From: a virus
DNA length: 19,487 nucleotides
Strand: one strand, 5' to 3'
UHGV virus genome: UHGV-1272094
Below, in pieces: positions 3,263-19,487 of this stretch. The first letter of the stretch is position 1, and the number at the start of each line of letters is the position of its first letter. The notes beneath the pieces are model-generated. The model had not been told where the DNA came from. It did no database searches and was given only the letters and a program-made list of their open reading frames with translations. The position numbers and the translations under genes are program-made.

Positions 3263-3655
3263 CTAGAGCGCGCGATATGGAATTTGAAGATTAAGCTGGA
3301 ACCAGCCATTCTTTTCGCCAACGGCTATTGAGGAAACAGCCTGGTAACTGAGACGATCGTCATCCTGAAACTCAAACAGTTCCCGCAATTTATCGGCTGT
3401 CTCAGTAATGAGTTTTGAACCAGAACCTGCGGGGACAAATAACTGAATAATGATTATCCCCGTGCGATAAACAATCGGCCCCGCGCCAATTTCATTAACT
3501 CCAGCCTGCCCGGGAATATTACTTAACCGCGCCCAGATTAACTTACCGGAAGGATCGAACGTTGGCGCGTTCGGATACAATACGTCTTTTCCATCAATAA
3601 TCGTCTGTGCCGTCATTCTGGAAATAACCGTATTTCTGATTTCAGTAAACGTCAT
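3263..3655 (-). CDS. Tail terminator / tail component protein (lambda U position)
   Basis: 130-aa ORF. Its ATG overlaps the upstream gene stop as ATGA at 3652-3655. Position is immediately upstream of the major tail gene. Confidence 0.55.
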   Translation of the reverse strand: MTFTEIRNTVISRMTAQTIIDGKDVLYPNAPTFDPSGKLIWARLSNIPGQAGVNEIGAGPIVYRTGIIIIQLFVPAGSGSKLITETADKLRELFEFQDDDRLSYQAVSSIAVGEKNGWFQLNLQIPYRAL

Positions 3656-4032
3656 TTGTAAGCCTGTAAAACACCATGAAAAGCGTTGGCATACACGCCA
3701 GTTGGCGCTTGTTGTGAATGACCGTTTTCAAGAGCCTCTGCATAAGGAAGGTTATTCTGGATATAAATAACTCCGTAATTTGCAGCTTTCGAAATAACCC
3801 CGATCCCACGCTGAACAGCAATCGTACCGTTCGGATCCACGTTATCAGATATACCAAAATCGGGATGCTGTAACGACACCAGGTTGTTATTTCTGAAACG
3901 TCCGGTATCAACCGGAGCAGCAATATCAATAGCAGTAAGAATCTGAATAGCGATGTAGCGAATCTTCAGCCCTACATCTTCCTCAATCATCCCGGCAAAT
4001 ATTGACGGTTCTATATCCCATGCCTTTGCCAT
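3652..4032 (-). CDS. Tail completion protein, HK97 gp10-like
   Basis: 126-aa ORF containing ...AAPVDTGRFRNN..., which I recall as characteristic of the HK97 gp10 family. Located in the head-tail joining block. Confidence 0.55.
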   Translation of the reverse strand: MAKAWDIEPSIFAGMIEEDVGLKIRYIAIQILTAIDIAAPVDTGRFRNNNLVSLQHPDFGISDNVDPNGTIAVQRGIGVISKAANYGVIYIQNNLPYAEALENGHSQQAPTGVYANAFHGVLQAYK

Positions 4033-4416
4033 TTACGCTCTCCTTAACTGGATAGAGTAAACTGATGCGGAAGGATCTACACTTGCTGTAATTACCTCGT
4101 ATCGTTGTAACTGCCTTGATACAGGATCATAAATCTCAATAATATGGTCGACAGCTGGTTTATCCGTAACCTCGCATACCAGAGCGGTTAATTTAAGGTC
4201 ACCATGCAAAATATTAATCCCATCAATTCTGCCCAGCTTATAACGTGTCAACACGCCTCGCCCGGTATAGATTGCGGTGGATTCGCCGCCAGTTTCCGTC
4301 ACAGGATCCCAGTGCCGGTGCGTAACGTAAGAACCAGAAAAATCACTCACGGCGTCCGCTAAATCCTCATCAAAAGCAGCGGCAACCTCTGACTGAATCT
4401 CTTCACGAAGCCCCAT
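4033..4416 (-). CDS. Head closure / head-tail joining protein
   Basis: 127-aa ORF. TAATG overlap with the upstream gene at 4416. Position matches the SPP1/HK97-type connector set. Confidence 0.5.
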   Translation of the reverse strand: MGLREEIQSEVAAAFDEDLADAVSDFSGSYVTHRHWDPVTETGGESTAIYTGRGVLTRYKLGRIDGINILHGDLKLTALVCEVTDKPAVDHIIEIYDPVSRQLQRYEVITASVDPSASVYSIQLRRA

Positions 4417-4811
4417 TATCCCCCCCTCACAACCCTGACTTGTGAGCGACTAAGTCCGTACGGTTTCAGCAGTGCTATCGCAAGCTGTAAATCGGGTTCA
4501 AGCAATGCAGTGCTGTTTGCTGGCAACTCAGAAAATGATTTCGATACACTGACCCCGTCAGCCGACACGGCTTTACTGATAACAACGCCAGAATCATTTT
4601 TCTGCTGAAACAACTTACCGAATGAGGCAATTCTGGCTGCATATGCTCCCGCAAGTTTTACCTCTTCCGGAATACGGGATGGGTTAATTTTCAGGTTGAA
4701 GCCATTAAGCCAGGCATTAGCCATTAAAACAGCTTTATTTTTAGCGTTCTCACTCGTCCAGGCGTTCCCAAACGCATTATCAACGTCATCACAGGTCACG
4801 TAAGTGATCAT
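4416..4811 (-). CDS. Head-tail connector (gp6-like adaptor) protein
   Basis: 131-aa ORF, first gene of the connector block downstream of the capsid gene. ATG at 4809-4811. Confidence 0.5.
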   Translation of the reverse strand: MITYVTCDDVDNAFGNAWTSENAKNKAVLMANAWLNGFNLKINPSRIPEEVKLAGAYAARIASFGKLFQQKNDSGVVISKAVSADGVSVSKSFSELPANSTALLEPDLQLAIALLKPYGLSRSQVRVVRGG

Positions 4812-4814
4812 GTG

Positions 4815-4991
4815 TTACTCCTGAGTTTTCCAGCCCATAGCCTTCCAGTTGTCAACTTCATCAGGATGAACATTAGCGATAGTTGGTGCGCCGGGAAACA
4901 TCTGATAATCGGTCACCATAACCACTAACTCAATTTGCGTTTTTTGTGCGGCTTCACGCTGTGCTCTTTGCTCTTTAGTTAATCCGGCCAT
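4815..4991 (-). CDS. Small hypothetical protein (58 aa) between capsid and connector genes
   Basis: Not in the ORF track. ATG at 4989-4991, stop TAA at 4815-4817, no internal stops. Translation MAGLTKEQRAQREAAQKTQIELVVMVTDYQMFPGAPTIANVHPDEVDNWKAMGWKTQE. GGGGGG lies 3 nt upstream of the ATG. Confidence 0.4.
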   Translation of the reverse strand: MAGLTKEQRAQREAAQKTQIELVVMVTDYQMFPGAPTIANVHPDEVDNWKAMGWKTQE

Positions 4992-5000
4992 ATGCCCCCC

Positions 5001-5023
5001 ATTAAAAATGGGGCCGAAGCCCC
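5001..5023 (-). terminator. Terminator/attenuator hairpin just downstream of the major capsid gene
   Basis: Minus-strand GGGGC-UUCG-GCCCC stem-loop (plus 5010-5023) followed by AUUUUUAA. Lies 11 nt after the capsid stop at 5034. Confidence 0.5.
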
Positions 5024-5033
5024 GTTTGAATGT

Positions 5034-6173
5034 TTAACCAAGAATCAGACAACCATGTGCCGGCTTCACTGATGAAACACCCCATGCCAGTCCAACTTCA
5101 TAGCGCACCTGGCGATACTGACGATACAGTGCAATCTGGAACGTAATCCCTGAAATCGGGTCCGTAACATTCATTACATCATCAGCATTATCGCCACCTT
5201 CCGGCATTGCCGGAGTACGGGATGCCAGCAGAAACGCGTTGCGATCAAACGCCATATTTGCCGTAAAGGCCCCAACAACTGTGATGGCAGTATCATCGGC
5301 CAGATCCTGACGCAGTCCGGGCGCTGCAAGAGTAATCAGATTGCTGGTCGCTGCTGCCACAACATACTGATTCGGATTACCAGCGAACGTAACAATCTGA
5401 CCTGCAGAAATACTCCCCGAACCAGTATCAATGGAAATAAGAACATCGCCTTCTTTTTTCTCTCCATTCACGAGATAACCAGTTGCAGCAACCTTTGGCG
5501 CTCGTTTCACACCTGCCGAACTGTGAATATTGAATCCCTCCAGACGCCCCAACACGCCCTCACGCAGTAGCTGTTCAGTGCCGGATTCATTCACTTTAAA
5601 CAATACAGACTGTTTTCCGCGCAAATTAGCAATGGCAGTGGAGCCAAGCACCATCTGCAGATCGGTTGTCGGTGCGCCGTTATCCTCCAGAACCTGACGA
5701 GCCAGAGCAGCATCAGAAAGATCATCTTTAACACCAAACGGCGTTGTCCCTGCGGTTCCCACGGCGCGGGAAGCACCGAAATACAACGCACCAAGATCAG
5801 CCTCAACCTCGTTTGCAAGGGCGCGAAAAGCCTGCTTGAACTGATCAGCCAGAATGGTGTTGTAAGTCCCTGAAGGGCCAAGAGCCAGTTGTTCTTCACC
5901 ATTCCATTTAACCGGTGCCATTTTGGATTTAGTAATTTTTACATCAACAGTGCCAATATTTTGATCACCGGTATTCGGAGCTGACGGCCCCGGTACGATA
6001 TCTTCGGTTTTCGCCTCAGGCGCAACTGGCGCGGTTACCGTCTGATCTTTTGCTGCGGCGTCAGCTTTTACGTTTTTTGCTACCGCAGGGATAAAACCTA
6101 CCTGCTCACGGGATACAACATCCAGGGCGGTATAAATAGTCGGGATCAACCCGGTCAGGGTATTTCCAGCCAT
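5034..6173 (-). CDS. Major capsid protein (P22 coat-like by recollection)
   Basis: ATG at 6171-6173 with AAGGA upstream, 379 aa, MAGNTLTGLIPTIYTALDVVSREQ... The longer ORF-track start at 6266 is a TTG. Position after scaffold; C-terminal region resembles P22 gp5-type coat proteins from memory. Confidence 0.75.
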   Translation of the reverse strand: MAGNTLTGLIPTIYTALDVVSREQVGFIPAVAKNVKADAAAKDQTVTAPVAPEAKTEDIVPGPSAPNTGDQNIGTVDVKITKSKMAPVKWNGEEQLALGPSGTYNTILADQFKQAFRALANEVEADLGALYFGASRAVGTAGTTPFGVKDDLSDAALARQVLEDNGAPTTDLQMVLGSTAIANLRGKQSVLFKVNESGTEQLLREGVLGRLEGFNIHSSAGVKRAPKVAATGYLVNGEKKEGDVLISIDTGSGSISAGQIVTFAGNPNQYVVAAATSNLITLAAPGLRQDLADDTAITVVGAFTANMAFDRNAFLLASRTPAMPEGGDNADDVMNVTDPISGITFQIALYRQYRQVRYEVGLAWGVSSVKPAHGCLILG

Positions 6174-6271
6174 AATTAAATATTCCTTAAAAATTTGCGT
6201 AATTGTGAATAGATGGAGTAATGAGCTATCCAGCCCTGACACCAGCTCCCATCCGGAAGCTGACAAATGTG

Positions 6272-7036
6272 TTAATCAACGATTGTGATACCGTCTTTCA
6301 ATGCGTTTTGCTTACCTGCAACATCCAGTGCATCAAAAGCAGAGCGTTTCATCGTTTTCTGACCAATATCATGCTGTGTCGGACGGGAGCCGCCGCCATT
6401 GTTGCCACTGGCTTTCAGGATGTAGTCTTTCTGAGGGTAATTTTCGACAAGGAACTCCAGCGCCTCATCAAACTGCGCCAGTTCGCCAGGCTTCGCGCGG
6501 GAATAAATTTTGTTGCCGGAAGCGTCATAAGCAACGATCTTCCCTTCTTCCACTTTGAATGCCTGCCCGAAGCGGGCTTGTAATAAATCTGCCGGGATCG
6601 CAATTTTATCGGCAATATATTTTGAACCCGCAAAACTACCGCCAATCATAGAATCGTAAAGCTGCGTCTCCAGCATCTGAGAGCGTTGCTTTTCTTCATC
6701 TAATTGCTGCTGAAAATTTTTCGTAATTTCTGCCTTAACCTGGTCAACCTGTCCCGCATCGATCAGCTTTTTCTGGTCGATTTTTAACAGCATTTCCAGT
6801 GCCTCGATCGCCTTCTTCGGGTCTTCGATAGCGGCAAACTTAGCCAGTTTTTCCTCTGCAGCTTCTTTAGCCAGGCGATGATTTTTTGCCTCGCCATTAA
6901 GCTCTGTAATTTTTTTTATCGCCAGCGGTGCATCGAAGCCGATTTCTTTACCATCGTCGTGCACATAAACTGGCAGGCCAGCAGTATCAATTTCTGCGTA
7001 TTGTTTTCCGTTAATCTCGACCGTTTTCAGTTTCAT
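6272..7036 (-). CDS. Scaffolding protein, putative
   Basis: ATG at 7034-7036 (MKLKTVEINGKQYAEID...), 254 aa, charged helical region (...EAAEEKLAKFAAIEDPKKAIEALEMLLKIDQKKLIDAG...). Located between the MuF-like gene and the capsid gene. The ORF-track GTG extension to 7108 runs through the upstream hairpin. Confidence 0.6.
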   Translation of the reverse strand: MKLKTVEINGKQYAEIDTAGLPVYVHDDGKEIGFDAPLAIKKITELNGEAKNHRLAKEAAEEKLAKFAAIEDPKKAIEALEMLLKIDQKKLIDAGQVDQVKAEITKNFQQQLDEEKQRSQMLETQLYDSMIGGSFAGSKYIADKIAIPADLLQARFGQAFKVEEGKIVAYDASGNKIYSRAKPGELAQFDEALEFLVENYPQKDYILKASGNNGGGSRPTQHDIGQKTMKRSAFDALDVAGKQNALKDGITIVD

Positions 7037-7096
7037 ATTAGTACCTGGTTTAAGTCTTCCGACAGTTACGCTGCTCACCATCCGGATCGCAGCAAT

Positions 7097-7121
7097 AAAA
7101 AAGGCCACCCGAAGGTAGCCT
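7097..7121 (-). terminator. Terminator-like hairpin upstream of the scaffold gene
   Basis: Stem aggccacc/ggtagcct (7102-7109 and 7114-7121) with one mismatch and a cgaa loop. On the minus strand it is followed by TTTTTTATT. Confidence 0.3.
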
Positions 7122-7140
7122 GTTGTAATAAATGATTTAT

Positions 7141-8256
7141 TTAAATCCCTGCTTTTCTGAATACCTGTGCATCACGCTCACGGAGTTGCTTCAGCGTCAG
7201 CCATTCGCCTTTATCGGTGTAAAATTCATCTGGCGACATACCGCCATCCCGAATCAGCTTTGCCCGGGTTTCCCCCACAATCTGTTTTTGTCTGGTGTAA
7301 GGCTGACGCAAAAACCATTCCCTGTAGGTTGTATCTCCGGCCACCACGCCATCCATGCTGGCCCGCTCAGCCGGGGAAATATCACGAACATCAATACCCA
7401 GTTCCTTCGCTGATTTCAGAATGAACGTTTCCGTTGAGCGGCAGCAGAAATGAATTTTTCCCGGCCCATGCAAATAAGGCACACTGTGACCTACAGGTTT
7501 ATTATCCAGCGTATATTTGAGGCGATCCCTGATTCGACATTGTGGCGTAGTACGATTATCAAGCGTTGATAACCATTGCTTACCCTTAATCAAATCATTA
7601 TTCGCGCTGGCAAAACTCTCACGGGCAGTAGCAGCAAGATGTCCAACCGCTGTTTTTGCAATGCTGGCCGCATTAGCCCGGCTCATCTGCAATGCACCAT
7701 CCTGAAATCCCTTGCTGACATGTCCCCGAATTTTTCTTGCGATCTGCTCATTGGTATCCCCCAGCAAAAAACCCTGACGCACCGTATTTGTTATGCGTCT
7801 GAGCCGATCCGCCTCAAGATCCAAGGCCCACTCACTGAGCAGTCGTCCCTGGAATGGTCGCGCCATTGCAGCGGCGTAAAGTGCATCAGAAGATATACCA
7901 ACCAGAGGGTGAACATCAGCAACAAAATCAGGTAGCAGAGAATCAAACAGACTTAACTGATAACCAGCCTCATAAATTGCCAGCTCGTTCAGCTCTCCGG
8001 AGAGACTGGTAAACATGCTGTTAATAGCAGCGCGGTTAACCTCTCTGACACTCGCCAGAAGTGACTCCAGGCGCGTAACGGTAAAACTACCAGGATCGAG
8101 GCTGTCCAGTGCTACCAGCAGGCGAGCTGTAAGCTCCGCATCGCTGTCATTCAGTATTTTCACCATTCTGGCAGCCACACCAGTGCTATAGCGGGATATC
8201 CAGACTGCATGAGCAATTGATTCATCACGCAGCCGTTCATTCACGGTTTGCATCAT
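7141..8256 (-). CDS. Head morphogenesis protein (Mu F / SPP1 gp7-like minor head protein)
   Basis: 371-aa ORF immediately after the portal gene, overlapping its 3' end by 20 nt. The SPP1-like order terS-terL-portal-gp7-scaffold-MCP supports the call. Confidence 0.6.
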   Translation of the reverse strand: MMQTVNERLRDESIAHAVWISRYSTGVAARMVKILNDSDAELTARLLVALDSLDPGSFTVTRLESLLASVREVNRAAINSMFTSLSGELNELAIYEAGYQLSLFDSLLPDFVADVHPLVGISSDALYAAAMARPFQGRLLSEWALDLEADRLRRITNTVRQGFLLGDTNEQIARKIRGHVSKGFQDGALQMSRANAASIAKTAVGHLAATARESFASANNDLIKGKQWLSTLDNRTTPQCRIRDRLKYTLDNKPVGHSVPYLHGPGKIHFCCRSTETFILKSAKELGIDVRDISPAERASMDGVVAGDTTYREWFLRQPYTRQKQIVGETRAKLIRDGGMSPDEFYTDKGEWLTLKQLRERDAQVFRKAGI

Positions 8257-9643
8257 TGATTTCCATCAACATTACACTCTGATTTTTTAATTCATCGATC
8301 ACATCCTCTGGACGGGAATCCTGATCGATAAATTTCAACGCCTGCAACACCCGAACCGCATCAATCTGACGTATATCACCGCCCTGACGCAATGACTGAA
8401 CAGCCAGCGCGGAGGATGAGTCAAACACCTGGGCAGATACATCCAGTTCAGTGCGCACATCCACATTGCCACCGCAACTCTCTCCGCTCCATTCCGCCAT
8501 TATCTGGAGAATATTATCGAGGGCATCTTCGAGGGAGTTCGCCATTGTATAAAGCGGCGAGTGTTCCTGCATCCGCTCTTCATTAGTCTGATCAACAGAT
8601 TTGGTGGATGTATTTTCAGCCCGCAGAAGTTTAGCGCCGGCATGACGCATCTGATTTTCCAGCTTCTCAAGTGATGTTTCGCCAGATTCTATCGCTGCGC
8701 CACTATGTTCAACATATTCGAGGCCATTTTTTGTTCTGTCCTCAAAAATCGTAGCCGTGGATGCACCAACCGTCAGTTCTTCATTCCTGTCCAGCCCGTA
8801 GGCCACCAGCAATGGAACGCGGGCAACATGAAGAATATTGTCCTGCTCGCTCTGGCTTTGCCAGTGCTTGATATTCAGCAAGCCAAGATTAAGCAATGGC
8901 GGTGTACCACGCATAAACCCTGTTTTCTTCGTATACAGTGTTACCAGAGGAATATCATCACGGCTGGTATTCCATGACTCATGAAGCATCCAGACAGATT
9001 CGCCATTAGTACCTTCGCTGCGTCGATAAATTTCTACTCGACGGGGCATAATATGGCGGATCTGCTCCACCTTCTTCTGCCCGAAATCATCACCATCAAT
9101 AATGATGACCTCTTTTATACGCAAATCAGTGAGAACAACTTTCCCTTTTTCAACTTTCGATTTCCATCCAATAACCTGGCGTGGATTCAGCATCGTAACG
9201 TACGGGCGACCACCGGCCGCGTTTTCATCGGCTTTTGTCCGAATCTCGTTCATATCCGTTCGTGGATAGTCCACCAGCGCATGTGCCACACCATACTGAA
9301 ATGCGAGACTGAAAAATTGCTGCGCCCACACATCCAGTCGGCTCCCCTCCATGTCGATATTTTCTGCATATTCCCTGATTTTTTCCGGCGTTTCCTCACT
9401 CAATACTGTCGGCTCTGCAAATATGCGCCCAATATTTTGTTTGATGCTTTCTTCATACACAGGAAGTAACGTAGCCACAGACAGGCGTTTTTTATAAGCG
9501 TCTTCATCTTCATTAGGCCATTTGGGGAGATAATTTTCCCCCTGCCTGCGCATTTCAAGCGTACCGCCCATCAATGCGTCGTTAATATCCCACGCCTCCA
9601 GCATATCGTTATAGTCGAGGTTGGGTGTTGATATATCAGCCAT
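8237..9643 (-). CDS. Portal protein
   Basis: 468-aa ORF starting 2 nt after the terL stop (ATG 9641-9643, MADISTPNLDYNDMLEAWD...). Size and position are those of a portal gene. Confidence 0.75.
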   Translation of the reverse strand: MADISTPNLDYNDMLEAWDINDALMGGTLEMRRQGENYLPKWPNEDEDAYKKRLSVATLLPVYEESIKQNIGRIFAEPTVLSEETPEKIREYAENIDMEGSRLDVWAQQFFSLAFQYGVAHALVDYPRTDMNEIRTKADENAAGGRPYVTMLNPRQVIGWKSKVEKGKVVLTDLRIKEVIIIDGDDFGQKKVEQIRHIMPRRVEIYRRSEGTNGESVWMLHESWNTSRDDIPLVTLYTKKTGFMRGTPPLLNLGLLNIKHWQSQSEQDNILHVARVPLLVAYGLDRNEELTVGASTATIFEDRTKNGLEYVEHSGAAIESGETSLEKLENQMRHAGAKLLRAENTSTKSVDQTNEERMQEHSPLYTMANSLEDALDNILQIMAEWSGESCGGNVDVRTELDVSAQVFDSSSALAVQSLRQGGDIRQIDAVRVLQALKFIDQDSRPEDVIDELKNQSVMLMEINDANRE

Positions 9644-9645
9644 AA

Positions 9646-10947
9646 TTAAATCCGAAGTGATGTGACTCTTCCGGTCGGTTTGACAATAGGGAATTGCTTA
9701 ACGATGAAATAACCTCCGGCATCATTCGGGTGATCATTGCCAGATTTTTTATCAGGCTCCCCCTTATCATCCCAGACCTGTTGCTCCAGAGATTCGGCAT
9801 ATACCGGACAACGCTTCACATTAACTTTATAGCGACGCTCACCATTGGCATTGCAGAACATTGCATTCATTGAGTTAACGCGATCTTTTACTGGCGGGTT
9901 CGAGCTGTTCACCACAACGTTAAAACCTGCCTGCTTAAGCTGGGCTATATCCGTCGTACTTGCGTTACTTGATTTTCTGGAATCTCCGGAAGCATCTGGA
10001 TAAATATAAATCTCCCTCACTTTCCGGTAATCATGCCCGTCATACAGCCAGAAGCGTTCTTTAATGAGGCGGATCATATCCGGCGTATCGTAGGCATTGA
10101 TGATTTCAGTTACCGCACATGGAAGCCCCAAACGCAGCACATGGACGATTCCCGCCATCTTTCCAACGTTAAAATCCATCCCAATATAAATCGGCTCCCC
10201 TGGCTGCTCCACTTCTTCGCAATTATTCAGTTTCCGGTCAAACTGATGGTAAACAGTACCACTTGTCAGGTTAGTAAACCGTCCTAGAAGATAGGCTTTA
10301 ATCAGCTCTGGAGGGTATGATTCAAGAAGTGAAGGAATGTAATCTGCTGGCAGGTTCTTTTCATTATCGAAAGTAGATGCCTGCACCAGACCATACAGTG
10401 AGGCCAGCTCTGTTTTTTCACGCACGGCTTTAACAAACTGCTCGTAGACAAATTTGAATCCTTCCGGCGTGGTTGTAACGTCAATACCGTTGCGAAGTCC
10501 ATCAATCTTATAACGCATACGCGCAATTATCTTGCGCCACGCCGTTCTGGCTTTTTCCTTCGGCAAAATGTCCAGTTCATCCACCAGCGCATTACCAATT
10601 TTGAAACCGACGATCGTTTGTGGCTTCTCCATCGATCTGCAGATAGTGGTTCCCCGATACTGGCGTCCGTAATAAAAGTGAACCTCTTTATTTCCCTCAT
10701 TAATTTTTACGTTCAATCCCCAGTCAGCAGCAACTTCTTCCACTGTAGGGTAAAAAATATCGCGAATTTGGGGATACGTTGGCGCAAAATATCCCTGATT
10801 TATACCTGGATGCTCCCAAATCCCCTTGCATATGCCGCCACACCCAACCCATGTTTTGCCCGAGCCAAAACCAGCAATATAGGCTTTAAATTTATGGGGC
10901 ATTGAAAGAAATCGCGCCTGAGGCACATTAAGCGTCGGAGAGATCAT
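9646..10947 (-). CDS. Terminase large subunit
   Basis: Walker A motif in ...KAYIAGFGSGKTWVGCGG... Preferred ATG at 10945-10947 with AAGGAG 8 nt upstream, 433 aa. Overlaps the terS stop by 20 nt. Confidence 0.9.
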   Translation of the reverse strand: MISPTLNVPQARFLSMPHKFKAYIAGFGSGKTWVGCGGICKGIWEHPGINQGYFAPTYPQIRDIFYPTVEEVAADWGLNVKINEGNKEVHFYYGRQYRGTTICRSMEKPQTIVGFKIGNALVDELDILPKEKARTAWRKIIARMRYKIDGLRNGIDVTTTPEGFKFVYEQFVKAVREKTELASLYGLVQASTFDNEKNLPADYIPSLLESYPPELIKAYLLGRFTNLTSGTVYHQFDRKLNNCEEVEQPGEPIYIGMDFNVGKMAGIVHVLRLGLPCAVTEIINAYDTPDMIRLIKERFWLYDGHDYRKVREIYIYPDASGDSRKSSNASTTDIAQLKQAGFNVVVNSSNPPVKDRVNSMNAMFCNANGERRYKVNVKRCPVYAESLEQQVWDDKGEPDKKSGNDHPNDAGGYFIVKQFPIVKPTGRVTSLRI

Positions 10948-12022
10948 CTTCATCACTCCTTAATCTGGCATCAACCACATTAATATTGATCGCCACAGGC
11001 TGGGGATGTTCATTATCCTCCACCGTTTCGATCTCTTTGCGCAGCTTCTGGTTCTCTATTCTGCGCCGTTCAATTTCCAGTTCCTGTAGCCGCTTATCTG
11101 CACATAATGCCCCGCCAGCAGAAAGCAAACGCAACAATTCACGCCGGGCGGCAGCCTTATCCTCCAGCAGGATCTCAACACCGTATTTTCCGAGCTTTGA
11201 CCCTGCATATAATTGCCGCGCATCCCCATCAAGCAGTGTGGTATCAGCCATATAAAGCTGTCCTGTTCCCTCACCGCAGCACTTCGGGCAATCAGGATTG
11301 GGTATGGCGTTATCAACAAAGCCGAGGCCTCCATATTCCGGCTCGGGTTTACCATCTCTGGAGGCCTGTGCCGCAGCCTTATCGAATTCTGCAATATCAC
11401 GCCACTGGTAGAGATGATTCTCGCCCCAGCAATAACGGCAGTTAACACGGCGAAATTGTGCCAACTGATTGGGGTCGGCCTGGACAATGGCCATCAACTG
11501 GCTCACCAGTAAATCCAGGTCTGCGGTATAGCGTTTCTGGTACTGATTGCGGAAGTAGCTGATAGCACGATAAACCCTGGCATTTCTAAGCATACGGCTG
11601 GCGTTGCTGTTAGCTGTCGCACCTTGCCCCTCATAACCAGCCAGTCGGTATGCCTCTGTCGGCTTTTTCCCCTGAGCAACCAACATGGCGAATTTTGCCT
11701 GCTGGTCAGAAATACCGAATTCATCGGGGCAGAACGAAATTTCTTCCGTGTCCCCCTCAATCAGGAGTGCATCGGATACAGCCTTTTTTTTCTGAGATTT
11801 TCCGTTCTGCCTTTGCGCAGTCTGCGCAGTTTTTTTTCGCGCACTTTTTTGCGCAGTTTTGCGCATTTCTTTCTGCGCATTTTTCGGAGTTTTTTTGATG
11901 TAACGACGGGCTGTTGCGTAGTTCAGTCCCCTTGCTTCACACCATGCCACCGGAGATATACCGGAGCGGGTGTATTCAGCAATATACTCCTGCTGCAACG
12001 CCCCCCAGTCCGGTCTGCTCAT
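10928..12022 (-). CDS. Terminase small subunit, unusually long (364 aa) with extra domains
   Basis: Central segment ...QQAKFAMLVAQGKKPTEAYRLAGYEGQGATANSNASRMLRNARVYRAI... matches the conserved terS core as I recall it. N-terminal HTH-like region, Lys-rich linker, and C-terminal Cys-rich segments (CRYCW...CPKCCGEG) plus coiled coil. ATG 12020-12022 with AGGA upstream. Confidence 0.8.
   Translation of the reverse strand: MSRPDWGALQQEYIAEYTRSGISPVAWCEARGLNYATARRYIKKTPKNAQKEMRKTAQKSARKKTAQTAQRQNGKSQKKKAVSDALLIEGDTEEISFCPDEFGISDQQAKFAMLVAQGKKPTEAYRLAGYEGQGATANSNASRMLRNARVYRAISYFRNQYQKRYTADLDLLVSQLMAIVQADPNQLAQFRRVNCRYCWGENHLYQWRDIAEFDKAAAQASRDGKPEPEYGGLGFVDNAIPNPDCPKCCGEGTGQLYMADTTLLDGDARQLYAGSKLGKYGVEILLEDKAAARRELLRLLSAGGALCADKRLQELEIERRRIENQKLRKEIETVEDNEHPQPVAININVVDARLRSDEDDLSDA
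11814..11879. repeat. Array of six palindromic TGCGCA hexamers (one CGCGCA variant) separated by T-tracts, inside terS
   Basis: Copies start at 11814, 11823, 11838 (variant), 11850, 11860 and 11874, spaced 9-15 bp apart and each followed by T runs. The array encodes the Lys-rich linker of terS. Confidence 0.8.
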
Positions 12023-12025
12023 CAG

Positions 12026-12277
12026 TTAGTCCTGATTTTTATCCACCCTGAGTAGTTCGCGCAGAGCAAAGGCATCCCCTTTTCTGGCAAGCTTAAACAA
12101 TGCCGCTCGTAACTCGGCTTCACCTTTCGCTCTGCCCTTACGGATGGCCGCATAAAAATCTGTCATTGCTTCCCGATTTTCTTTCAGTCGGTTCAGATCA
12201 ACATCCAGAACGTCAGCGATTTGTTGTGCAGTCATCCGGCACGCTGCCAGAGACTCGACTTTCGAATACGGAATCAT
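12026..12277 (-). CDS. Small HTH-like protein of unknown function upstream of terS
   Basis: 83-aa ORF MIPYSKVESLAACRMTAQQIADVLDVDLNRLKENREAMTDFYAAIRKGRAKGEAEL... Stop is 3 nt before the terS ATG. Its 5' end overlaps the 3' end of the GT-like gene. Confidence 0.5.
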   Translation of the reverse strand: MIPYSKVESLAACRMTAQQIADVLDVDLNRLKENREAMTDFYAAIRKGRAKGEAELRAALFKLARKGDAFALRELLRVDKNQD

Positions 12278-13169
12278 TTGTCACCCCCATTGATATGCAG
12301 GGTGTCTTCTTCCTGTATTTTTCGTGAAGGATTTTTACTGCAGCGTTGTTCCAGGTGACCTGATGGTGAATGCGTTTATGGCTGGCACCCATCAGTGAGA
12401 TTTTTACGCACGACGGCGAATACATGACGGAGTAAAAACTTTTAACGTAGGTTCCGGAATCCAGATACAGCTCGGTCATTCCGCCGCTGTTTTTCTGCGT
12501 CTGTTTCTGCCCTAACTGGACAGCACCGATCGTCATAAACAATTCACCACAGCGACCGAGATTCGTGTACGTATTCACATCCTCGTTAATGCGCCCCATG
12601 AATGAGAACGGTCGATCAACCGAACAGATAAAGCTGTTCATTGCCTTGCGTTTCACCCACGAAGCATGGCCGCCATTGTCACCAAGAAAATCCCCGCCCT
12701 GCGACATAGCGATGGAAAGCGCGGGTATTGATTCGTAATACGCCAGCATTTCAGAAAGGATCGCATCCAGTTTCCTTATCGGGAAATAGGCCTGGTCATA
12801 GTTGCGATCCACCCGAAACTGGAACTCGTGATAATCATCATCGAGCTGAATGAAGTATTTACACCCGACCAGTTTTGCCAGGTCGAAACAGGCATTACGG
12901 GCGTAAAAAATTGAGCGGCGATCACCAAAATTATCGGCTTCGTCAAAACGACTGGCAATATCGGCTTTGGAAAATACCAGCACCTGTTCACCAAATTCAG
13001 CCATGTACTGATGCCGTGTCTTATCTTCATCATCAACAACGATAAAAATTTTCCCGGTATAGCCAGCACGACGCAACGTCCGGTAAGTCAGAACTTTGTC
13101 CGGTCGCCCGTGAGTCAGAATAAAGGCGCAAAAATCATCACGCATATTCCTCCTCCTCCTCCCCGCCAT
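12213..13169 (-). CDS. GT-A fold glycosyltransferase-like protein
   Basis: N-terminus AFILTHGRPDKVLTYRTLRRAGYTGKIFIVVDDED resembles the first strand/helix/strand of GT-A (GT2-like) enzymes. A DxD-type motif follows at ...YFIQLDDDYHE... Alternative ATG at 13145 gives 310 aa, with GGAGGAGGAGG just upstream. Confidence 0.55.
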   Translation of the reverse strand: MAGRRRRNMRDDFCAFILTHGRPDKVLTYRTLRRAGYTGKIFIVVDDEDKTRHQYMAEFGEQVLVFSKADIASRFDEADNFGDRRSIFYARNACFDLAKLVGCKYFIQLDDDYHEFQFRVDRNYDQAYFPIRKLDAILSEMLAYYESIPALSIAMSQGGDFLGDNGGHASWVKRKAMNSFICSVDRPFSFMGRINEDVNTYTNLGRCGELFMTIGAVQLGQKQTQKNSGGMTELYLDSGTYVKSFYSVMYSPSCVKISLMGASHKRIHHQVTWNNAAVKILHEKYRKKTPCISMGVTNDSVFESRVSGSVPDDCTTNR

Positions 13170-13932
13170 GCATGATCTCCACCATGCGCTGCGTCATTCG
13201 GACAAATCCATTTTCAATAGCCTGCTGATAATCAATGATCACCAGCGCCGACTCCTCGAAAAGGCACTGAATTTCAGCGGGGGCATGAGCGTAATAGTCC
13301 GCAATTCTGCTGAAATTAAACACTGTGTGACGTTCTGCCGCACACAGGAGGAATTTCTCAATATCAGGATCAAGGGACGCCGAACGTATCCGGCTGATCA
13401 GCTCCTGAGTTTTCGTATCGTCGTACAGTTCACTGATATCCGGTTTACCGCCCGACGGCTCATAAACAGGCGTATCAATTTTCGTCGTATACGGCTCCTC
13501 CTCATTTCCTGTACCGGGCAAAACATCCGTCAACAGTTCATCAATTTCTGTCGGGATGAAGCCTGTCAGGGAGACATCAAAATCAGCATTGATTAGGTCC
13601 GACAGCTCCATCCGCAACAGATCTTCATCCCAGCCAGCATTCATCGGCAGGCGATTATCTGCCAGGCGGTACGCCTTTTTCTGCTCATCCGTCAGGCCAG
13701 ACAGAACAATGACCGGAACAGAATCCATTTTGAGCATTTCAGCCGCCATAACACGACCGTGACCCGCAATAATTTCGCCCTTTTCGTCAATCAGCACCGG
13801 ATTAGTCCAGCCGAATTGCTTAATACTTTCTACCAGTTGTGCCACCTGCTCAGGGCTGTGCGTCCTGGCGTTGTGCGCATACGGTGACAATTCTTGTAAT
13901 GGGCGATAGACTATCTTTAATTTCTCGCTCAT
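13138..13932 (-). CDS. ParB-like nuclease domain (ParB/Srx fold) protein
   Basis: MSEKLKIVYRPLQELSPYAHNARTHSPEQVAQLVESIKQFGWTNPVLIDEKGEIIAGHGRVMAA... is a typical ParB N-terminal domain with the GxGR box. Acidic C-terminal tail GGEEEEEYA. ATG at 13930-13932. Confidence 0.8.
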   Translation of the reverse strand: MSEKLKIVYRPLQELSPYAHNARTHSPEQVAQLVESIKQFGWTNPVLIDEKGEIIAGHGRVMAAEMLKMDSVPVIVLSGLTDEQKKAYRLADNRLPMNAGWDEDLLRMELSDLINADFDVSLTGFIPTEIDELLTDVLPGTGNEEEPYTTKIDTPVYEPSGGKPDISELYDDTKTQELISRIRSASLDPDIEKFLLCAAERHTVFNFSRIADYYAHAPAEIQCLFEESALVIIDYQQAIENGFVRMTQRMVEIMHGGEEEEEYA

Positions 13933-13954
13933 ACAGCCTTGCTTTATGAATAAA

Positions 13955-13983
13955 ACGCACCCCAGCAGCCAGTGCTACTGGGG
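13955..13983 (-). terminator. Weak terminator-like hairpin downstream of trkG
   Basis: Stem ccccag/ctgggg (13960-13965 and 13978-13983) with an inner agc/gct helix. On the minus strand a UUUUAUU tract follows after a 4-nt spacer. Confidence 0.3.
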
Positions 13984-14069
13984 ACGGAGGGGTTGCTGGT
14001 AAAGTTAGGTATTGGATCAATGAGTGAGTCAACATAATATTAAACTCACAATTATAAATCAGCCATATA

Positions 14070-15545
14070 TTAGGAGCGCCAAAAAAAACCTGAAAACAAT
14101 ATAATAACAGGATAAATTTCAAGGCGACCAAGAATCATAGCTATGCACATTAAACATTTTGCAATGTCATTAAGCACTCCGAATGACGATGCAGTAGCCC
14201 CAAAACCTAATCCCATATTATTAATACATGCAGCCACTGTTGCAAATGATGTAAGAAAATCATATCCCATACCATTTAACACCAGTATAAAAAACACCGT
14301 GAAGAGAGTATAAAGAAAAAAGAAACTCCATACAGACCTCATTACACGATCTGTAACTATCTTCCCTCCTACATTTACACTCAACAACGCTCTGGGATGA
14401 GAAAGCTGATTTATCTCGTGTTTGCTTTGTTTGAAAAGTATAAGAAATCGAAGTGACTTAATTCCACCACAAGTTGAACCTATACATCCCCCAAAGAAAC
14501 TTGACAACAGCAAAAACACTATCGTGTGCGTGGGCCAACTTGCATAATCCTGCGTAGCTAAACCATTATCAGTGAGCATGGAGCTGGCAAGAAAAAACGA
14601 ATGAATAAAACTTCCATGCAAGTCATACATACCTATATGCCAGACCTGGAAAGAGGTAACAATGATCACCCCTAAGGCTATTAACAGAAAGAAACGAAGT
14701 TCAATATCTCTGATTAAAGGTTTTATCGTTTTCCTGCTAATAACAATATACCAAAGAGTGAAGTTGAAAGCCGATAGCAGGGAAAAAGAACGAGCCACCA
14801 GCTCAACCAAATAGTTATTAAAATATCCGATACTCTCGCTATGAGTTGAGAAACCACCAAGCGAAACTGTGGAAATCCCGTGACAAATAGCATCAAACAA
14901 AGGCATTCCTGCAAGTCTATAACAGACAATACAAGCAATACCTAATAAAGAATAAGTTATCCACAGTGTCCGTGACGTATCGGCCAGGCGGGGAGTGAGT
15001 TTGTCATCCTTAAATGGCCCCGGCATTTCTGACTGATAAAGCTTTGCACCACCAATACCCAATAATGGCAATACAGCAACCGCCAGAACAATAACTCCTA
15101 AACCACCTATAAAATTTAACTGTGACCGATAGTACAAATATGCCCGAGGTAATGAACTAACATCATCAATTACAGTTGCTCCTGTTGTTGTTATTCCAGA
15201 AACCCCTTCAAACAGAGCATCAATGAACGTTAAATTAAGTTCTGAGTCAATCCATAAAGGGAATGCACTAATAACAGAAAACAAAATCCAAAACATTACA
15301 ATTATAATAAACCCATCACGGGTACGTAATTGAATGCCAGATTTCTTAGTTGTATACCACGCTCCGCCACCAATGCAAAAAAATATAACGAAAGTTATAA
15401 AGAAAACGAACAGGCTTTTTTCTTTATAAAACAATGCTACAACCATTGGTGGCAACATTGAAAGACTATAGAGCCAAACCAGGAACCCACACATATGAGT
15501 AACAACTCTTACATGAGATGTATTCATATCTAAATATTCTTTCAA
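14070..15545 (-). CDS. trkG: TrkH/TrkG-family K+ uptake membrane protein (prophage cargo)
   Basis: Polytopic membrane protein with TrkH-family motifs (...FEGVSGITTTGATV..., GGxGG-type loops). Matches my recollection of E. coli TrkG, which is encoded in the Rac prophage. TTG start at 15545 has AAGGTGG 6 nt upstream; the ATG at 15527 gives 485 aa (MNTSHVRVV...). The gene is visibly AT-rich compared with its neighbours. Confidence 0.85.
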   Translation of the reverse strand: MKEYLDMNTSHVRVVTHMCGFLVWLYSLSMLPPMVVALFYKEKSLFVFFITFVIFFCIGGGAWYTTKKSGIQLRTRDGFIIIVMFWILFSVISAFPLWIDSELNLTFIDALFEGVSGITTTGATVIDDVSSLPRAYLYYRSQLNFIGGLGVIVLAVAVLPLLGIGGAKLYQSEMPGPFKDDKLTPRLADTSRTLWITYSLLGIACIVCYRLAGMPLFDAICHGISTVSLGGFSTHSESIGYFNNYLVELVARSFSLLSAFNFTLWYIVISRKTIKPLIRDIELRFFLLIALGVIIVTSFQVWHIGMYDLHGSFIHSFFLASSMLTDNGLATQDYASWPTHTIVFLLLSSFFGGCIGSTCGGIKSLRFLILFKQSKHEINQLSHPRALLSVNVGGKIVTDRVMRSVWSFFFLYTLFTVFFILVLNGMGYDFLTSFATVAACINNMGLGFGATASSFGVLNDIAKCLMCIAMILGRLEIYPVIILFSGFFWRS

Positions 15546-15664
15546 TTATAACCACCTTGCTGCAATATTATGATTATACTGTATAAAATTTAACTCCTCT
15601 TAGATCTTACTTCACTGTTCCTTATGAAACAATCATCAAAATGAATCATATTGTAGTTAAGATT

Positions 15665-16129
15665 TTACTTTAAACACTGCTCGGTTATGTATTGCTGAGC
15701 ACCTTCAAGTTGGGCCTGCATCATTACCAGTCGTTCCCGGAGGGTGAAATAATCCCGTTCAGCGGTGTCTGCCAGTCGGGGGGAGGCTGCATTATCCACG
15801 CCGGAGGCGGTGGTGGCTTCACGCACTGACTGACAGACTGCTTTGATGTGCAACCGACGACGACCAGCGGCAACATCATCACGCAGAACATCATTTTCAG
15901 CTTTCGCATCAGCTAACTCCTTCGTGTATTTTGCATCGAGCGCAGCAACATCACGCTGACGCATCTGCATGTCAGTAATTGCCGCGTTCGCCAGCTTCAG
16001 TTCTCTGGCATTTTTGTCGCGCTGTTCTTTGTAGGCGATGGCGTTATCACGGTAATGATTAACACCCCATGACAGGCAGACGACGATGCAGATAACCAGA
16101 GCGGAGATAATCGCGGTTACTCTGTTCAT
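15665..16129 (-). CDS. Rz: Rz i-spanin
   Basis: [80 protein letters not shown]... is near-identical to lambda Rz as I recall it. Its ATG overlaps the endolysin stop as ATGA at 16126-16129. Confidence 0.9.
15724..15909 (-). CDS. Rz1: Rz1 o-spanin lipoprotein, embedded in Rz in the +1 frame
   Basis: [56 protein letters not shown]..., with lipobox VVGC and a Pro-rich tail, lying entirely inside Rz. Matches lambda Rz1 from memory. Confidence 0.85.
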
Positions 16130-16623
16130 TGCTGACCCCACAAACAGATTTCACGCTCAATCTCACGACGAGTCATGAGACCTTTCCATTGCTTACCGCC
16201 AGCATATGTCCAGCGACGTAGCTGATCACATGCGCCTTTGATATCGCCCTGGTTTATTTTGCGAAGAAGCGTCGATGTTCTGAAATTGCCAGCACCCACG
16301 TTGTAAACGAATGAGTAAAGAGCGCCGCGCGTTGTTTCCGGTATATCGACTTTGATGTACGGGTTAATTTGTCTGGCGACCGTGGCAAGGTCTTTATTCA
16401 AGAGTGTTTTGCATTCTGCTTTGGTATACGTTTTACCGAGCATGATGTCTTTTCCTGTATGCCCGTGACATACAGTCCATACACCAACAATATCTTTGTA
16501 TGGTATGTAGCTGACACCTTCCAGACCATCGTTACCACTTGGGCCAGTGATTAACACTGATGCTATAGCAATTGCTCCGCCACCAATAGCAGCAGCAACG
16601 ACTTTTCGTAATGATGGAGGCAT
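16126..16623 (-). CDS. R: SAR endolysin (lysozyme, phage P21 R-like)
   Basis: N-terminal signal-anchor-release segment [30 protein letters not shown]..., then a T4-lysozyme-like core. Closely resembles P21 R as I remember it. TAATG overlap with the holin stop at 16623. Confidence 0.85.
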
Positions 16624-16838
16624 TATTCACCTCTCGCAGCCTTGCGCTTATCTTCTTTAATCTTGAAATAAAGGTTTGTCAGGTACGTCAGCAGGCCAAA
16701 TACCAGACTACCCAGCACACCGATTGCAGCCCACTGTGACGGAGTTACTCTATCGAGCAACTGTAAAAACCAGTAGCCAGCACTGCCTGCGGAGGTGCCG
16801 TAGGCAATGCCTGTTGAAATTTTGTCCATGGATTTCAT
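16623..16838 (-). CDS. S: Pinholin (P21 S-like) with dual-start motif
   Basis: [71 protein letters not shown]. ATGs at 16836-16838 (MKSMDK) and 16827-16829 (MDK), with GGAGGTGAGG upstream. The ORF-track 5' extension to 16895 is not supported. Confidence 0.85.
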
Positions 16839-16940
16839 AGCCTCACCTCCGCACGGAACGGATGGCATAGTTATTATGTGTAGGCTTTCAGACACATCAA
16901 TCAGAGCCTTAATTGATATATATGCTGGAGACGATGCAAT

Positions 16941-16964
16941 ATAAAAAGCTCGCCGTAGCGAGCT
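16941..16964 (-). terminator. Intrinsic-terminator-like hairpin between lipoprotein 1 and the holin gene
   Basis: Perfect 7-bp stem agctcgc/gcgagct (16947-16953 and 16958-16964) with cgta loop. On the minus strand it is followed by UUUUAU. Confidence 0.45.
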
Positions 16965-17089
16965 AATAAAATGTATTTCTCTGATATTATGTTTATTTGT
17001 ATTAGCTCAGACTTGACATCACAGGTTTCGTATATAGAACATCATCAAATCTGTCAGTTTGCTATGAATGAGATATAGTAATTGAAGAG

Positions 17090-17485
17090 CTAACCTCGCA
17101 TGTCAAAGCCAGATTTCTGAAAATCTCTGTAGACTTCCGGATTGTTGAAGGCCGGAAATTTGGCTTTATGAGCTGCGGACTTTATCGCTTCGCAATAGGC
17201 TTTATCACCGTTACTGGTAGATATTTTTAACGCCGTGCCATCCTGAGAGAATTCCATATGCAACCTGCATTTTTTCCCTTTCCAGTTATGCGGCTCATCA
17301 AGTTTGGCATTAATTGCAGCTCTGATTCCCCGCGCTTGCGCCCCCCATTCATCCTGATCATCCCAGCGTCCTGAACTGCAACTACCTGTAGCAGTAGTTT
17401 TGTGGCAATCTGAAGGGTGTAAAGGTGTGCATCCCGCAACAAAACCGACCCAAAAAGTCAACATAACGATTTTCTTTAATCCCAC
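17090..17485 (-). CDS. Lipoprotein with TolA C-terminal (domain III)-like module, copy 1
   Basis: GTG start at 17483-17485 with GAGGAG 6 nt upstream. Signal peptide MGLKKIVMLTFWVGFVAGC with lipobox VAGC. C-terminal ...GIRAAINAKLDEPHNWKGKKCRLHMEFSQDGTALKISTSNGDKAYCEAIKSAAHKAKFPAFNNPEVYRDFQKSGFDM aligns with copy 2 and with the TolA C-terminal domain as I recall it. Confidence 0.7.
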   Translation of the reverse strand: MGLKKIVMLTFWVGFVAGCTPLHPSDCHKTTATGSCSSGRWDDQDEWGAQARGIRAAINAKLDEPHNWKGKKCRLHMEFSQDGTALKISTSNGDKAYCEAIKSAAHKAKFPAFNNPEVYRDFQKSGFDMRG

Positions 17486-17563
17486 TTCTTGCTCCTCAAT
17501 CCATTAAAATCTCAGCAATAGTAGTTGTTACGTCCGCCACTGGCTCAGAGCTGACTATCCGCT

Positions 17564-17592
17564 AAATTTAGCTCAGTGCCGTAGCTGTGTCA
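17564..17592 (-). promoter_or_regulatory. Candidate sigma70 promoter for lipoprotein 1
   Basis: Minus-strand -35 CTGACA (17587-17592), 17-bp spacer, -10 TAAATT (17564-17569). Confidence 0.3.
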
Positions 17593-17635
17593 GAACAAAC
17601 CTAAGCCGAAACCGTTTATTACAAAACAATAAATA

Positions 17636-18064
17636 TCAGGGTTTAAAATCCAGCACCCCATTTTGAAATACTTTATATACTTCCGGCGAAGGGGGGGCAG
17701 GTATATCAGCATTCTTTATCGCATTCATCGCTTCACGACATAAATCGAGGTCTCCACTTTCTCTTTTAACCTCCAGTAGAAGGCCATTCGGGGCCATATG
17801 CATTCTCAGTGTACACTCTTTTCCTGAATACTTACTCGCATCCCCGAACTGTTTTTCGATGGCGCTCTTGATTTGATGGGCATACAGACGGATATCCTCA
17901 CTAACATCAGAAGTACGTTCAGATGAACTCACATACTGTGTCTCTATTGCTTTATCGGAGTAATATGATGTACGGTCATGATAATTTGTCGATACAGCAT
18001 CAGTGCACCCGATAATAATCCCACTAATAATCAACGTAAGAATTGATGCGCTACGAAAACCCAT
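17636..18064 (-). CDS. Lipoprotein with TolA C-terminal (domain III)-like module, copy 2
   Basis: ATG at 18062-18064 with GAGGA 5 nt upstream. Signal peptide MGFRSASILTLIISGIIIGC with lipobox IIGC. C-terminal ...YAHQIKSAIEKQFGDASKYSGKECTLRMHMAPNGLLLEVKRESGDLDLCREAMNAIKNADIPAPPSPEVYKVFQNGVLDFKP resembles TolA domain III (recalled ...QIKSAIESKFYDASSYAGKTCTLRIKLAPDGMLLDIKPEGGDPALCQAALAAAKLAKIPKPPSQAVYEVFKNAPLDFKP). Confidence 0.75.
   Translation of the reverse strand: MGFRSASILTLIISGIIIGCTDAVSTNYHDRTSYYSDKAIETQYVSSSERTSDVSEDIRLYAHQIKSAIEKQFGDASKYSGKECTLRMHMAPNGLLLEVKRESGDLDLCREAMNAIKNADIPAPPSPEVYKVFQNGVLDFKP
17942..18036. repeat. Left copy of a perfect inverted repeat of at least 95 bp, inside the 5' coding region of lipoprotein 2
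   Basis: Plus 17942-18036 equals the reverse complement of 19393-19487 at every position checked by hand. Identity stops abruptly at 18037/19392. Confidence 0.9.
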
Positions 18065-18093
18065 TTTTCCTCACATATGTCATATAGTAAAGG

Positions 18094-18123
18094 ATTATAT
18101 ATACCGTTGTTTTGGACGCTCAA
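18094..18123 (-). promoter_or_regulatory. Candidate sigma70 promoter for lipoprotein 2
   Basis: Minus-strand -35 TTGAGC (18118-18123), 18-bp spacer, -10 TATAAT (18094-18099), about 30 nt upstream of the ATG. Confidence 0.35.
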
Positions 18124-18651
18124 ACAGCGAATCAGATCAAATAAAACGCACATTTGTTAACATTTACACAAAGTCTGCGTGGGATATTCTGAAAGAATAT
18201 CCATAATGTGGAGAGAATCTATTGAAGTGCATGGTGCCGGGTGCCTCCCGGTGAACAAAATGTTCGTGATACCTGTCGGCGACAGAAAAGGTTAATGGTA
18301 TCACCCCACCGCACAGGGGGATTCACCATGCAGGAGTTTTCTTAGCAAACTCACTGCGCGCCCGGCAACTCCCAACCACATAAAATGCGGAGTTTGTGGT
18401 ATTTATGCATATAACTCGCAGGAATTATCTTAAAAAACTGATGTCGATCCGGATTAAAAAGAAGCAGGTCATCATCAGATGACTGGAAAAAAGGAAAAAA
18501 AAAATACTCATCATACAGTTTTGATTGCAGGGATGAGCCTGCTATGCACAATATGCAGAATATAAGCAAGATAAAAATATGCAGGCATATTATTTCGGAT
18601 TTTGTTATTAACACAACCTTTTTAATAATCATTTGGCATACAATAAACCAG

Positions 18652-18680
18652 TCCAAAAAGAACCGCCTAAACAGGCGGTT
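18652..18680 (-). terminator. Intrinsic terminator (minus strand) in the Q-to-lipoprotein intergenic region
   Basis: Perfect 8-bp stem aaccgcct/aggcggtt (18661-18668 and 18673-18680) with aaac loop. On the minus strand it is followed by CUUUUUGG. Confidence 0.5.
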
Positions 18681-19000
18681 GGTCAATACAAAGGATGCTT
18701 CGTCTTTATTATAGTAATCTGAGGCGTCGGGTGTCTTGTATCAGACAACATATTGTCCCGCTAAACAGCGAATTACAAACCACCCTGCAATGATCTCTCA
18801 TCTCATTTTATATGAGTTGACGACATCAGGATAACGCATCATCAGCCCCTGCCAAGAAATATCAAAACTCCCGCCAGCAATGTGTTATCACAATATTGTA
18901 AAAAAAACACAGCACCGAAACTATAACTGGTCTCCGTTATAATTTGGAGCAGAAAGACCAGTTGCCCAACTAGCAGCATTCTCCCCTGCTTTCCTGACGT

Positions 19001-19028
19001 AAAAAAAACCGCATTAAGCGGTTTTTTT
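19001..19028. terminator. Bidirectional intrinsic terminator downstream of the Q-like gene (tR'-like)
   Basis: aaaaaaaa-ccgc-attaa-gcgg-ttttttt: a GC stem flanked by an A8 run and a T7 run, so it can terminate either strand. Lies about 80 nt past the Q-like stop at 19109. Confidence 0.6.
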
Positions 19029-19108
19029 ACGATGTCCATGTCTGCAATCCGCCTCGCGATACAGCTGTGCGAAGCATAGCAAAATTGAAGCAGTTTATAC
19101 GTAAGAAA

Positions 19109-19426
19109 TCAAGCCATTTTCTCAGCAAATGATTCACGCATGGGAATATATAGGGCATACTCAGCAACAGCTAACCAATTAGCAATCCGTTTTTCGCATG
19201 TGCTAAAACACCACTCTGGGTGTCCATCATTTAGCAATTCAGCCATTTTGCGCTTAGTCATCCCCCGCCCTTCATAGCGTTGCCGGAGAATGCAAATCAA
19301 TCCTGGATGCTCTGCCAGCACCTCACTTATGACTCGATCAATACATAACGCCTCTGCATCAGTACAATGCGCCAGCCAGCTCTTTTGCTTGCCGTTGATT
19401 ATTAGTGGGATTATTATCGGGTGCAC
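19109..19426 (-). CDS. Late antiterminator Q-like protein, 5' end possibly truncated or chimeric
   Basis: ...INGKQKSWLAHCTDAEALCIDRVISEVLAEHPGLICILRQRYEGRGMTKRKMAELLNDGHPEWCFSTCEKRIANWLAVAEYAL... has the layout I recall for the short Q family (as in quuD). Its first 11 codons (MHPIIIPLIIN) lie inside the inverted repeat and mirror the lipoprotein signal peptide. Location upstream of the lysis genes fits. Confidence 0.5.
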   Translation of the reverse strand: MHPIIIPLIINGKQKSWLAHCTDAEALCIDRVISEVLAEHPGLICILRQRYEGRGMTKRKMAELLNDGHPEWCFSTCEKRIANWLAVAEYALYIPMRESFAEKMA

Positions 19427-19487
19427 TGATGCTGTATCGACAAATTATCATGACCGTACATCATATTACTCCGATAAAGCAATAGAG
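19393..19487. repeat. Right copy of the inverted repeat, truncated by the window end and overlapping the Q-like ORF start
   Basis: Reverse complement of 17942-18036. On the plus strand it encodes ...PLIISGIIIGCTDAVSTNYHDRTSYYSDKAIE, the same lipoprotein signal-peptide and linker residues. Extent beyond 19487 is unknown. Confidence 0.9.

Follow-up and report, generated by a model that had tools for sequence, protein, structure and literature searches.

The window analyzed here is a stretch of 19,487 nucleotides, and its positions 1 to 19399 are approximately 100% identical to the late region of a lambdoid prophage that carries trkG and is found in 681 complete Escherichia coli genomes. The whole locus is colinear in 447 genomes. 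Gene identities were taken from the RefSeq annotation of identical DNA over 31 kb around the locus. On the minus strand, a Q-like gene (DUF1133) is followed by a spacer of approximately 1 kb, two genes for lipoproteins with a TolA C-terminal domain, the lysis genes essD, rrrD, and Rz, then trkG, the terminase and head genes, and the tail genes up to the tape-measure gene. The genes annotated over the 31 kb are structural, lysis, trkG, TolA-like, DUF1133, DUF1364, and DUF1367 genes, together with distant IS21 transposase genes. The left end of the window lies in single-copy tape-measure sequence, where we found no repeat or mosaic boundary, and matches in approximately 700 genomes run full-length across that end. 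Five phage records end at about window position 16144. The features of the right-hand part of the window are as follows.

17636 to 18064, minus strand: lipoprotein 2 gene, 142 amino acids, TolA C-terminal domain, intact; source of the copied sequence.
17942 to 18036, minus strand: left arm of the inverted repeat, the parental copy in the TolA-like lipoprotein gene; colinear with its flanks in all relatives.
18094 to 18123, minus strand: promoter-like site TTGAGC-18-TATAAT, a consensus match only, located approximately 30 nt 5′ of the start codon of lipoprotein 2.
18175 to 18361, minus strand: STnc100-family sRNA homologue, intergenic between Q and lipoprotein 2 (86.6 bits against a gathering score of 47; E value, 1.7e-18).
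18661 to 18680, minus strand: terminator-like hairpin, then a T-run.
About 18998 to 19031, minus strand: strong hairpin with A- and U-run flanks, just 3′ of the Q stop codon (-17.6 kcal/mol; z = -3.8).
19109 to 19399, minus strand: remnant of the Q-like gene, DUF1133 family with a weak Phage_antitermQ match; about codons 85 to 180 of 180 kept.
19393 to 19399: junction microhomology CGTTGAT, 7 nt exact, common to intact Q and the reverse complement of the lipoprotein gene.
19393 to 19487, plus strand: right arm, an inverted copy of 17942 to 18036.

The two arms are 95 nt each and 100% complementary, are separated by 1,356 nt, and form the sole inverted repeat of at least 20 nt anywhere in the window. 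A sequence-only reading of this DNA had described 17942 to 18036 as the exact reverse complement of 19393 to 19487, with identity ending abruptly at both inner edges; both statements hold, over 95/95 nt for the former and with TAAGAATTGA versus GCAAGCAAAA for the latter. A perfect 95-nt match in 19.5 kb is beyond chance, and one arm must thus have been copied from the other. The final base of the right arm is also the final base of the window (19487); 95 nt is hence only its visible extent. The first 7 of its 95 nt (19393 to 19399) also belong to the parental Q sequence, so that the foreign part amounts to just 88 nt, and these nucleotides (19400 to 19487) are foreign to this position in every other prophage copy. 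Translation confirmed that the left arm corresponds to codons 10/11 to 41 of the 142-residue lipoprotein, including the lipobox residue Cys20. The segment between the arms has the contents ascribed to it, namely, the lipoprotein start codon, a promoter-like site, two terminator-like hairpins, and the Q remnant. The hairpin at about 18998 to 19031 looks like a bidirectional terminator. Rfam matches to AgrB and isrK at the terminator hairpin were below threshold and were taken as chance.

The same reading had proposed that Q is shortened at the repeat. In intact relatives, the Q-like protein has 180 residues and matches positions 1 to 175 of the 176 positions of the DUF1133 profile (PF06576), whereas the ORF in the window matches positions 84 to 175 of 176 only. 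By its profile match, the Q-like gene of the window is a member of the DUF1133 family, but a truncated one, its match falling short of the full-length profile. The N-terminal 84 to 85 codons are absent from it, and the proposed shortening is therefore real, with residues 1 to about 85 of 180 missing. It had also been asked whether the short N terminus might be natural in this family; alignment of the truncated ORF with the intact 180-residue protein showed that it is not native. As the sequence-only reading had stated, the first 11 codons of the 105-residue ORF at 19109 to 19426 (minus strand) come from the right arm. An exact look-up of this chimeric Q ORF returned no record.

We then located the point of departure from the parental sequence. 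Alignments to complete genomes all stop at 19399 to 19403, and a three-way alignment together with direct comparison showed that the window departs from the intact 180-codon Q-like gene at codon 84 to 86. Beyond 19399, the window continues on the opposite strand, 1.36 kb back, within the 5′ region of the gene for the TolA-like lipoprotein. At the junction, intact Q reads ...TTGCTTGC CGTTGAT CATCTCTCGC..., the window reads ...TTGCTTGC CGTTGAT TATTAGTGGG..., and the reverse complement of the lipoprotein gene reads ...ATTCTTA CGTTGAT TATTAGTGGG...; the intact Q sequence spanning the breakpoint position is ...GTTGATCATCTCTCG.... Positions 4488079 to 4490093 of NZ_CM135960.1 are one example of the intact reference sequence. 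Thus, the window switches from Q to the lipoprotein strand at CGTTGAT, and this breakpoint is what forms the sharp inner edge of the repeat. When the microhomology is extended to 19402, 9/10 positions are identical. The 3.2-kb parental stretch contains 455 inverted 7-mer pairs, and 96 of 535 Q positions have an inverted 7-mer partner. Inverted 7-mers are therefore abundant by chance, and the junction site is not special in this respect.

The junction was sought in independent data. BLAST searches found it in 0 of 5,426 complete E. coli genomes, 1,220 of which contain both junction halves separately, and in 0 phage records and 0 plasmids. Junction probes of 48 nt and 28 nt had 0 exact matches in viral, metagenome, and species-representative genome contigs, while the control, the intact 28-mer at the junction position, was found in 72 viral contigs. 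At the protein level, the junction-spanning N-terminal peptide had no match among 5.8 billion clusters; the nine matches returned by this search all begin with the native MGFRSASILT. We also examined 75 related loci, of which 47 hold both the arm and Q. The arm is single copy and in the parental orientation in 47/47 of these and inverted in 0, and a search for a long inverted repeat in the intact loci found none. Judged from these comparisons, the right arm is a private, one-off join and not part of the prophage architecture.

Insertion sequences have struck the same locus in several relatives. In strain Br_190_kylling, an IS3 lies in Q, 3 bp from the junction position, bordered by its own termini and a CAT target duplication. 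In 13C1079T, the two lipoprotein genes are separated by an IS3-family element, and in GCA_044364495.1, an IS1 interrupts lipoprotein 2. The draft contig of the latter ends exactly 127 nt into the IS1, showing that graph assemblers can end contigs one k-mer inside a repeat. We considered a link between the IS3 of Br_190_kylling and the junction and rejected it, as no IS sequence is present in the window; their proximity is a coincidence or reflects a locally fragile spot. Truncated lipoprotein variants that diverge near codon 43 were similarly considered as a counterpart of the outer edge of the arm and rejected, one of them being an IS1 insertion 6 nt away, and the IS3-family element of 13C1079T being intergenic. 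As the junction in the window has no IS end, the insertions in relatives are separate events. All that they indicate is the frequent disruption of this decaying prophage region.

The explanation that we favor, and regard as probable, is that the right arm is a fold-back template-switch chimera generated during amplification or library preparation, or one kept by the assembler at the tip of a contig. In such an event, a displaced 3′ end would re-anneal at a short complementary stretch on the opposite strand of the same molecule, and its extension would yield an inverted copy of the 5′ region of the lipoprotein gene. In multiple displacement amplification (MDA), 85% of chimeras are inverted joins, most of them between segments less than 10 kb apart, and more than 70% of chimeric junctions show 2 to 21 nt of complementarity (Lasken & Stockwell 2007, PMC1855051). 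Enzymatic fragmentation likewise produces dual-strand artefacts that join nearby DNA of opposite strands (PMC7531576). The junction in the window has these properties: the two segments are inverted and on the same molecule, the 1,356 nt between them are well below 10 kb, and the 7 nt of complementarity fall within the 2- to 21-nt range. In addition, the junction was not reproduced in independent data in which the intact-sequence control was present in 72 contigs.

The length of the arm would then be set by the read or by the assembler k-mer and not by biology. The contig of a relative that ends 127 nt into IS1 suggests by analogy that the 95-nt arm length was probably determined in this way. 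Some points count against a chimera. If k was 95, it was a permitted but nondefault assembler value, and the single-copy left end of the window does not mark it as a repeat-bounded contig. Assemblers also normally drop a weakly supported chimeric edge if the true continuation is present. That the sequence continues through the junction suggests either that the junction was fairly well supported or that the rest of Q was missing or poorly covered in the sample. All in all, we infer an in vitro or in silico rather than an in-cell origin of the template switch, and we consider a chimera of this kind more likely than a real inverted duplication.

The main competing explanation, which we hold possible but rather unlikely, is that a real inverted duplication private to the source clone arose by a snap-back, tandem-inversion-duplication, or ODIRA-type event. 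In the course of cellular replication or repair, a 3′ end located in Q would have folded onto the other strand at the 7-nt inverted microhomology and recopied the lipoprotein side in the inverted orientation. Q would be destroyed, and the lipoprotein region would be present twice, in opposite orientations, on either side of 1.36 kb of single-copy spacer, with the assembler stopping one k-mer into the second copy. Replication-based inverted amplification at short inverted repeats has been documented (PMC4689423). The junction geometry and the microhomology, an inverted junction at a short shared sequence, are the same as for an artefact. Several observations fit a real event: the sequence passes through the junction with no break at 19399, as expected for a sample without an intact Q continuation; it stops precisely where the shared stretch runs out, as a graph assembler does at a real repeat; and the locus is in a dispensable prophage frequently struck by IS elements. 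In contrast, the element is very common and none of its other copies showed the junction, and the window displays one junction and 95 nt of copy, whereas a circular chromosome requires a second junction. Snap-back inverted duplications are also rare and unstable. The earlier suggestion of a recent inverted duplication or recombination scar thus stands as far as the geometry is concerned, but a chimera yields the same geometry and is the likelier source.

In a stronger form of this explanation, which appears very improbable to us, the junction would be real and the inverted copy would run on into a second complete lipoprotein region, so that the spacer could be flipped by RecA and a snap-back error would have created a new homology-driven switch. 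In that case, a long inverted duplication would flank 1.36 kb of DNA comprising the lipoprotein promoter, an STnc100-like sRNA gene, and the late terminators, and a single replication error would have sufficed to produce a homology-driven inversion switch.

The sequence-only reading had raised the possibility of an invertible promoter/5′-end switch, in which a site-specific recombinase or RecA would flip 18037 to 19392 and thereby connect the promoter and 5′ end to one or the other of two lipoprotein genes. We give this interpretation hardly any credence. A perfect inverted repeat does bracket a segment with a promoter-like site and a start codon, the plus strand does stay in frame through the right arm, and a 95-nt repeat suffices for RecA-dependent inversion. 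However, the right arm is missing from all relatives, including those that are approximately 100% identical, and a single orientation is found across the population (447 colinear genomes; 47/47 loci). The search for a nearby serine or tyrosine invertase found no invertase or integrase annotated in the 31 kb around the locus. The arm edges have no Hin/Gin-type crossover core; the core AAACCNNGGTTT has one match with 1 mismatch in the window, at 8915, which is the chance level, and other recombinase families use other sites. Furthermore, the inner edge of the right arm is a 7-nt microhomology rather than a recombination site, and it interrupts the Q reading frame midway, so that the gene is destroyed. 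The plus strand does read in frame from an ATG at 19329 (MTRSIHNASASVQCASQLFCLPLIISGIIIGC...), as had been reported, but the alternative lipoprotein 5′ end that was deduced from it does not hold up: this N terminus is antisense Q, in frame by chance, and it is absent from protein collections. Moreover, should the far copy be identical, flipping would exchange identical genes and change nothing. The absence of the right arm from relatives, the single orientation, and the lack of an annotated recombinase argue together that an evolved invertible switch is not supported by the genomic comparisons.

Finally, an inverted lipoprotein gene could have come to lie beside a truncated Q through IS activity or through homologous recombination involving a second prophage, at a locus hit repeatedly by IS elements (the IS3, IS3-family, and IS1 cases), but this is equally improbable, as Q runs directly into lipoprotein sequence with no IS end at the junction, the 7 nt shared at the join are far too short for homologous recombination, and none of the 5,426 complete E. 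coli genomes contains this arrangement.

There is no functional system at this repeat under any of the likely explanations. If the join is real, it is one more sporadic rearrangement of a decaying prophage, which inactivated the Q-like gene and is of local interest only. The case nevertheless carries a warning: a promoter bracketed by a perfect inverted repeat can mimic a phase-variation switch, and here hundreds of identical prophages expose one arm as a private join. Scans for invertible promoters should discount repeats that have an arm at a contig end, an inner edge inside a conserved gene, and no counterpart in near-identical relatives.

Compared with known systems, the locus shares with the Hin, Gin, Cin, and Pin systems and with fimS-type invertons an inverted repeat around a promoter-like site and the 5′ end of a gene. 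Unlike them, it lacks both a recombinase and a crossover core, relatives do not share the repeat, a single orientation is found in the population, and one of the arms breaks a gene. Tandem inversion duplication is a known replication-based event in Salmonella. The window resembles the tandem inversion duplications of Salmonella and E. coli and the ODIRA events (PMC4689423) in having an inverted junction at a short inverted microhomology and a single-copy spacer; those events have two junctions and a raised copy number and are usually selected, whereas the visible part of this locus comprises one junction and 95 nt of copy, with no apparent selective reason. As at the contig termini produced from de Bruijn graphs, the sequence stops at the limit of a stretch that recurs elsewhere in the graph, but here this stretch recurs in the contig's own reverse complement, and the overlap is 95 nt, a nondefault k. 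With respect to the chimeras of MDA and of library preparation, the window is atypical in that the junction reached the assembled consensus, which needs low local coverage or an amplified chimeric molecule. Like the chimeras of MDA and of fragmentation, its junction is private to one data set and is positioned at the end of the sequence.

The two lipoprotein genes of the window lie in tandem, flanked by the Q-like gene (DUF1133 family) and the prophage lysis cassette. Each encodes a TolA C-terminal domain, and both look like moron genes. A candidate role for their products is the exclusion of TolA-dependent phages or colicins. The features of this region are as follows:

17090-17485, minus strand: lipoprotein gene with a TolA C-terminal domain
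17636-18064, minus strand: lipoprotein gene with a TolA C-terminal domain (lipoprotein 2)
18175-18361, minus strand: match to STnc100, an Rfam sRNA family (86.6 bits; gathering score 47)
about 18998-19031: strong hairpin with an A-run and a T-run on its flanks (-17.6 kcal/mol, z = -3.8)

The STnc100 match is clear and occupies part of the spacer that separates lipoprotein 2 from the Q-like gene; the RefSeq annotation of identical DNA gives no gene at its position. Analysis of the related loci (L001-L075) showed that the distance from the 95-nt repeat arm inside lipoprotein 2 to the Q-like gene falls into two sharp classes, of approximately 1,073 and 1,457 nt, the window belonging to the former. 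These classes indicate an insertion/deletion polymorphism of approximately 384 nt in the spacer. Immediately downstream of the Q stop codon, the hairpin looks like a bidirectional terminator; it was not picked up by a simple terminator scan of the window. Two sub-threshold Rfam matches, AgrB and isrK, overlap it, probably by chance.

We identified insertion sequences in three relatives:

L002 6403-7660 (window 19402/19403): IS3 in the Q-like gene, strain Br_190_kylling
L077 4130-4256 (window about 17936): IS1 in lipoprotein 2, after codon 43, draft GCA_044364495.1
L076 970-2198: IS3-family element between both TolA-like lipoprotein genes, strain 13C1079T

The Br_190_kylling IS3, with a CAT target duplication, lies just 3 bp from the position of the fold-back junction in the window. 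Either this proximity is coincidental or the Q-like gene is locally fragile, or targeted, at this point. The GCA_044364495.1 contig stops exactly 127 nt inside IS1, which is the textbook k-mer overlap at a repeat. In 13C1079T, the element lengthens the first lipoprotein ORF as annotated. Together with the other IS matches and nine truncated protein variants (P0001-P0009), this element indicates that the moron region is frequently disrupted.

Further genes were found in the window and in one relative:

about 14070-15545, minus strand: trkG, a potassium transporter gene
L077 847-1059: hok/gef-family toxin gene

The toxin gene, present in that one relative (L077), is upstream of the DUF1367-YbcO-DUF1133 genes. 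The window belongs to a Rac-related prophage, and the complete genomes examined lack the left part of this element (integrase, repressor and replication genes). Its trkG is placed within the late region, with the lysis genes on one side and the ynaK/terminase genes on the other, and trkG has the same late-region placement in the Rac prophage.
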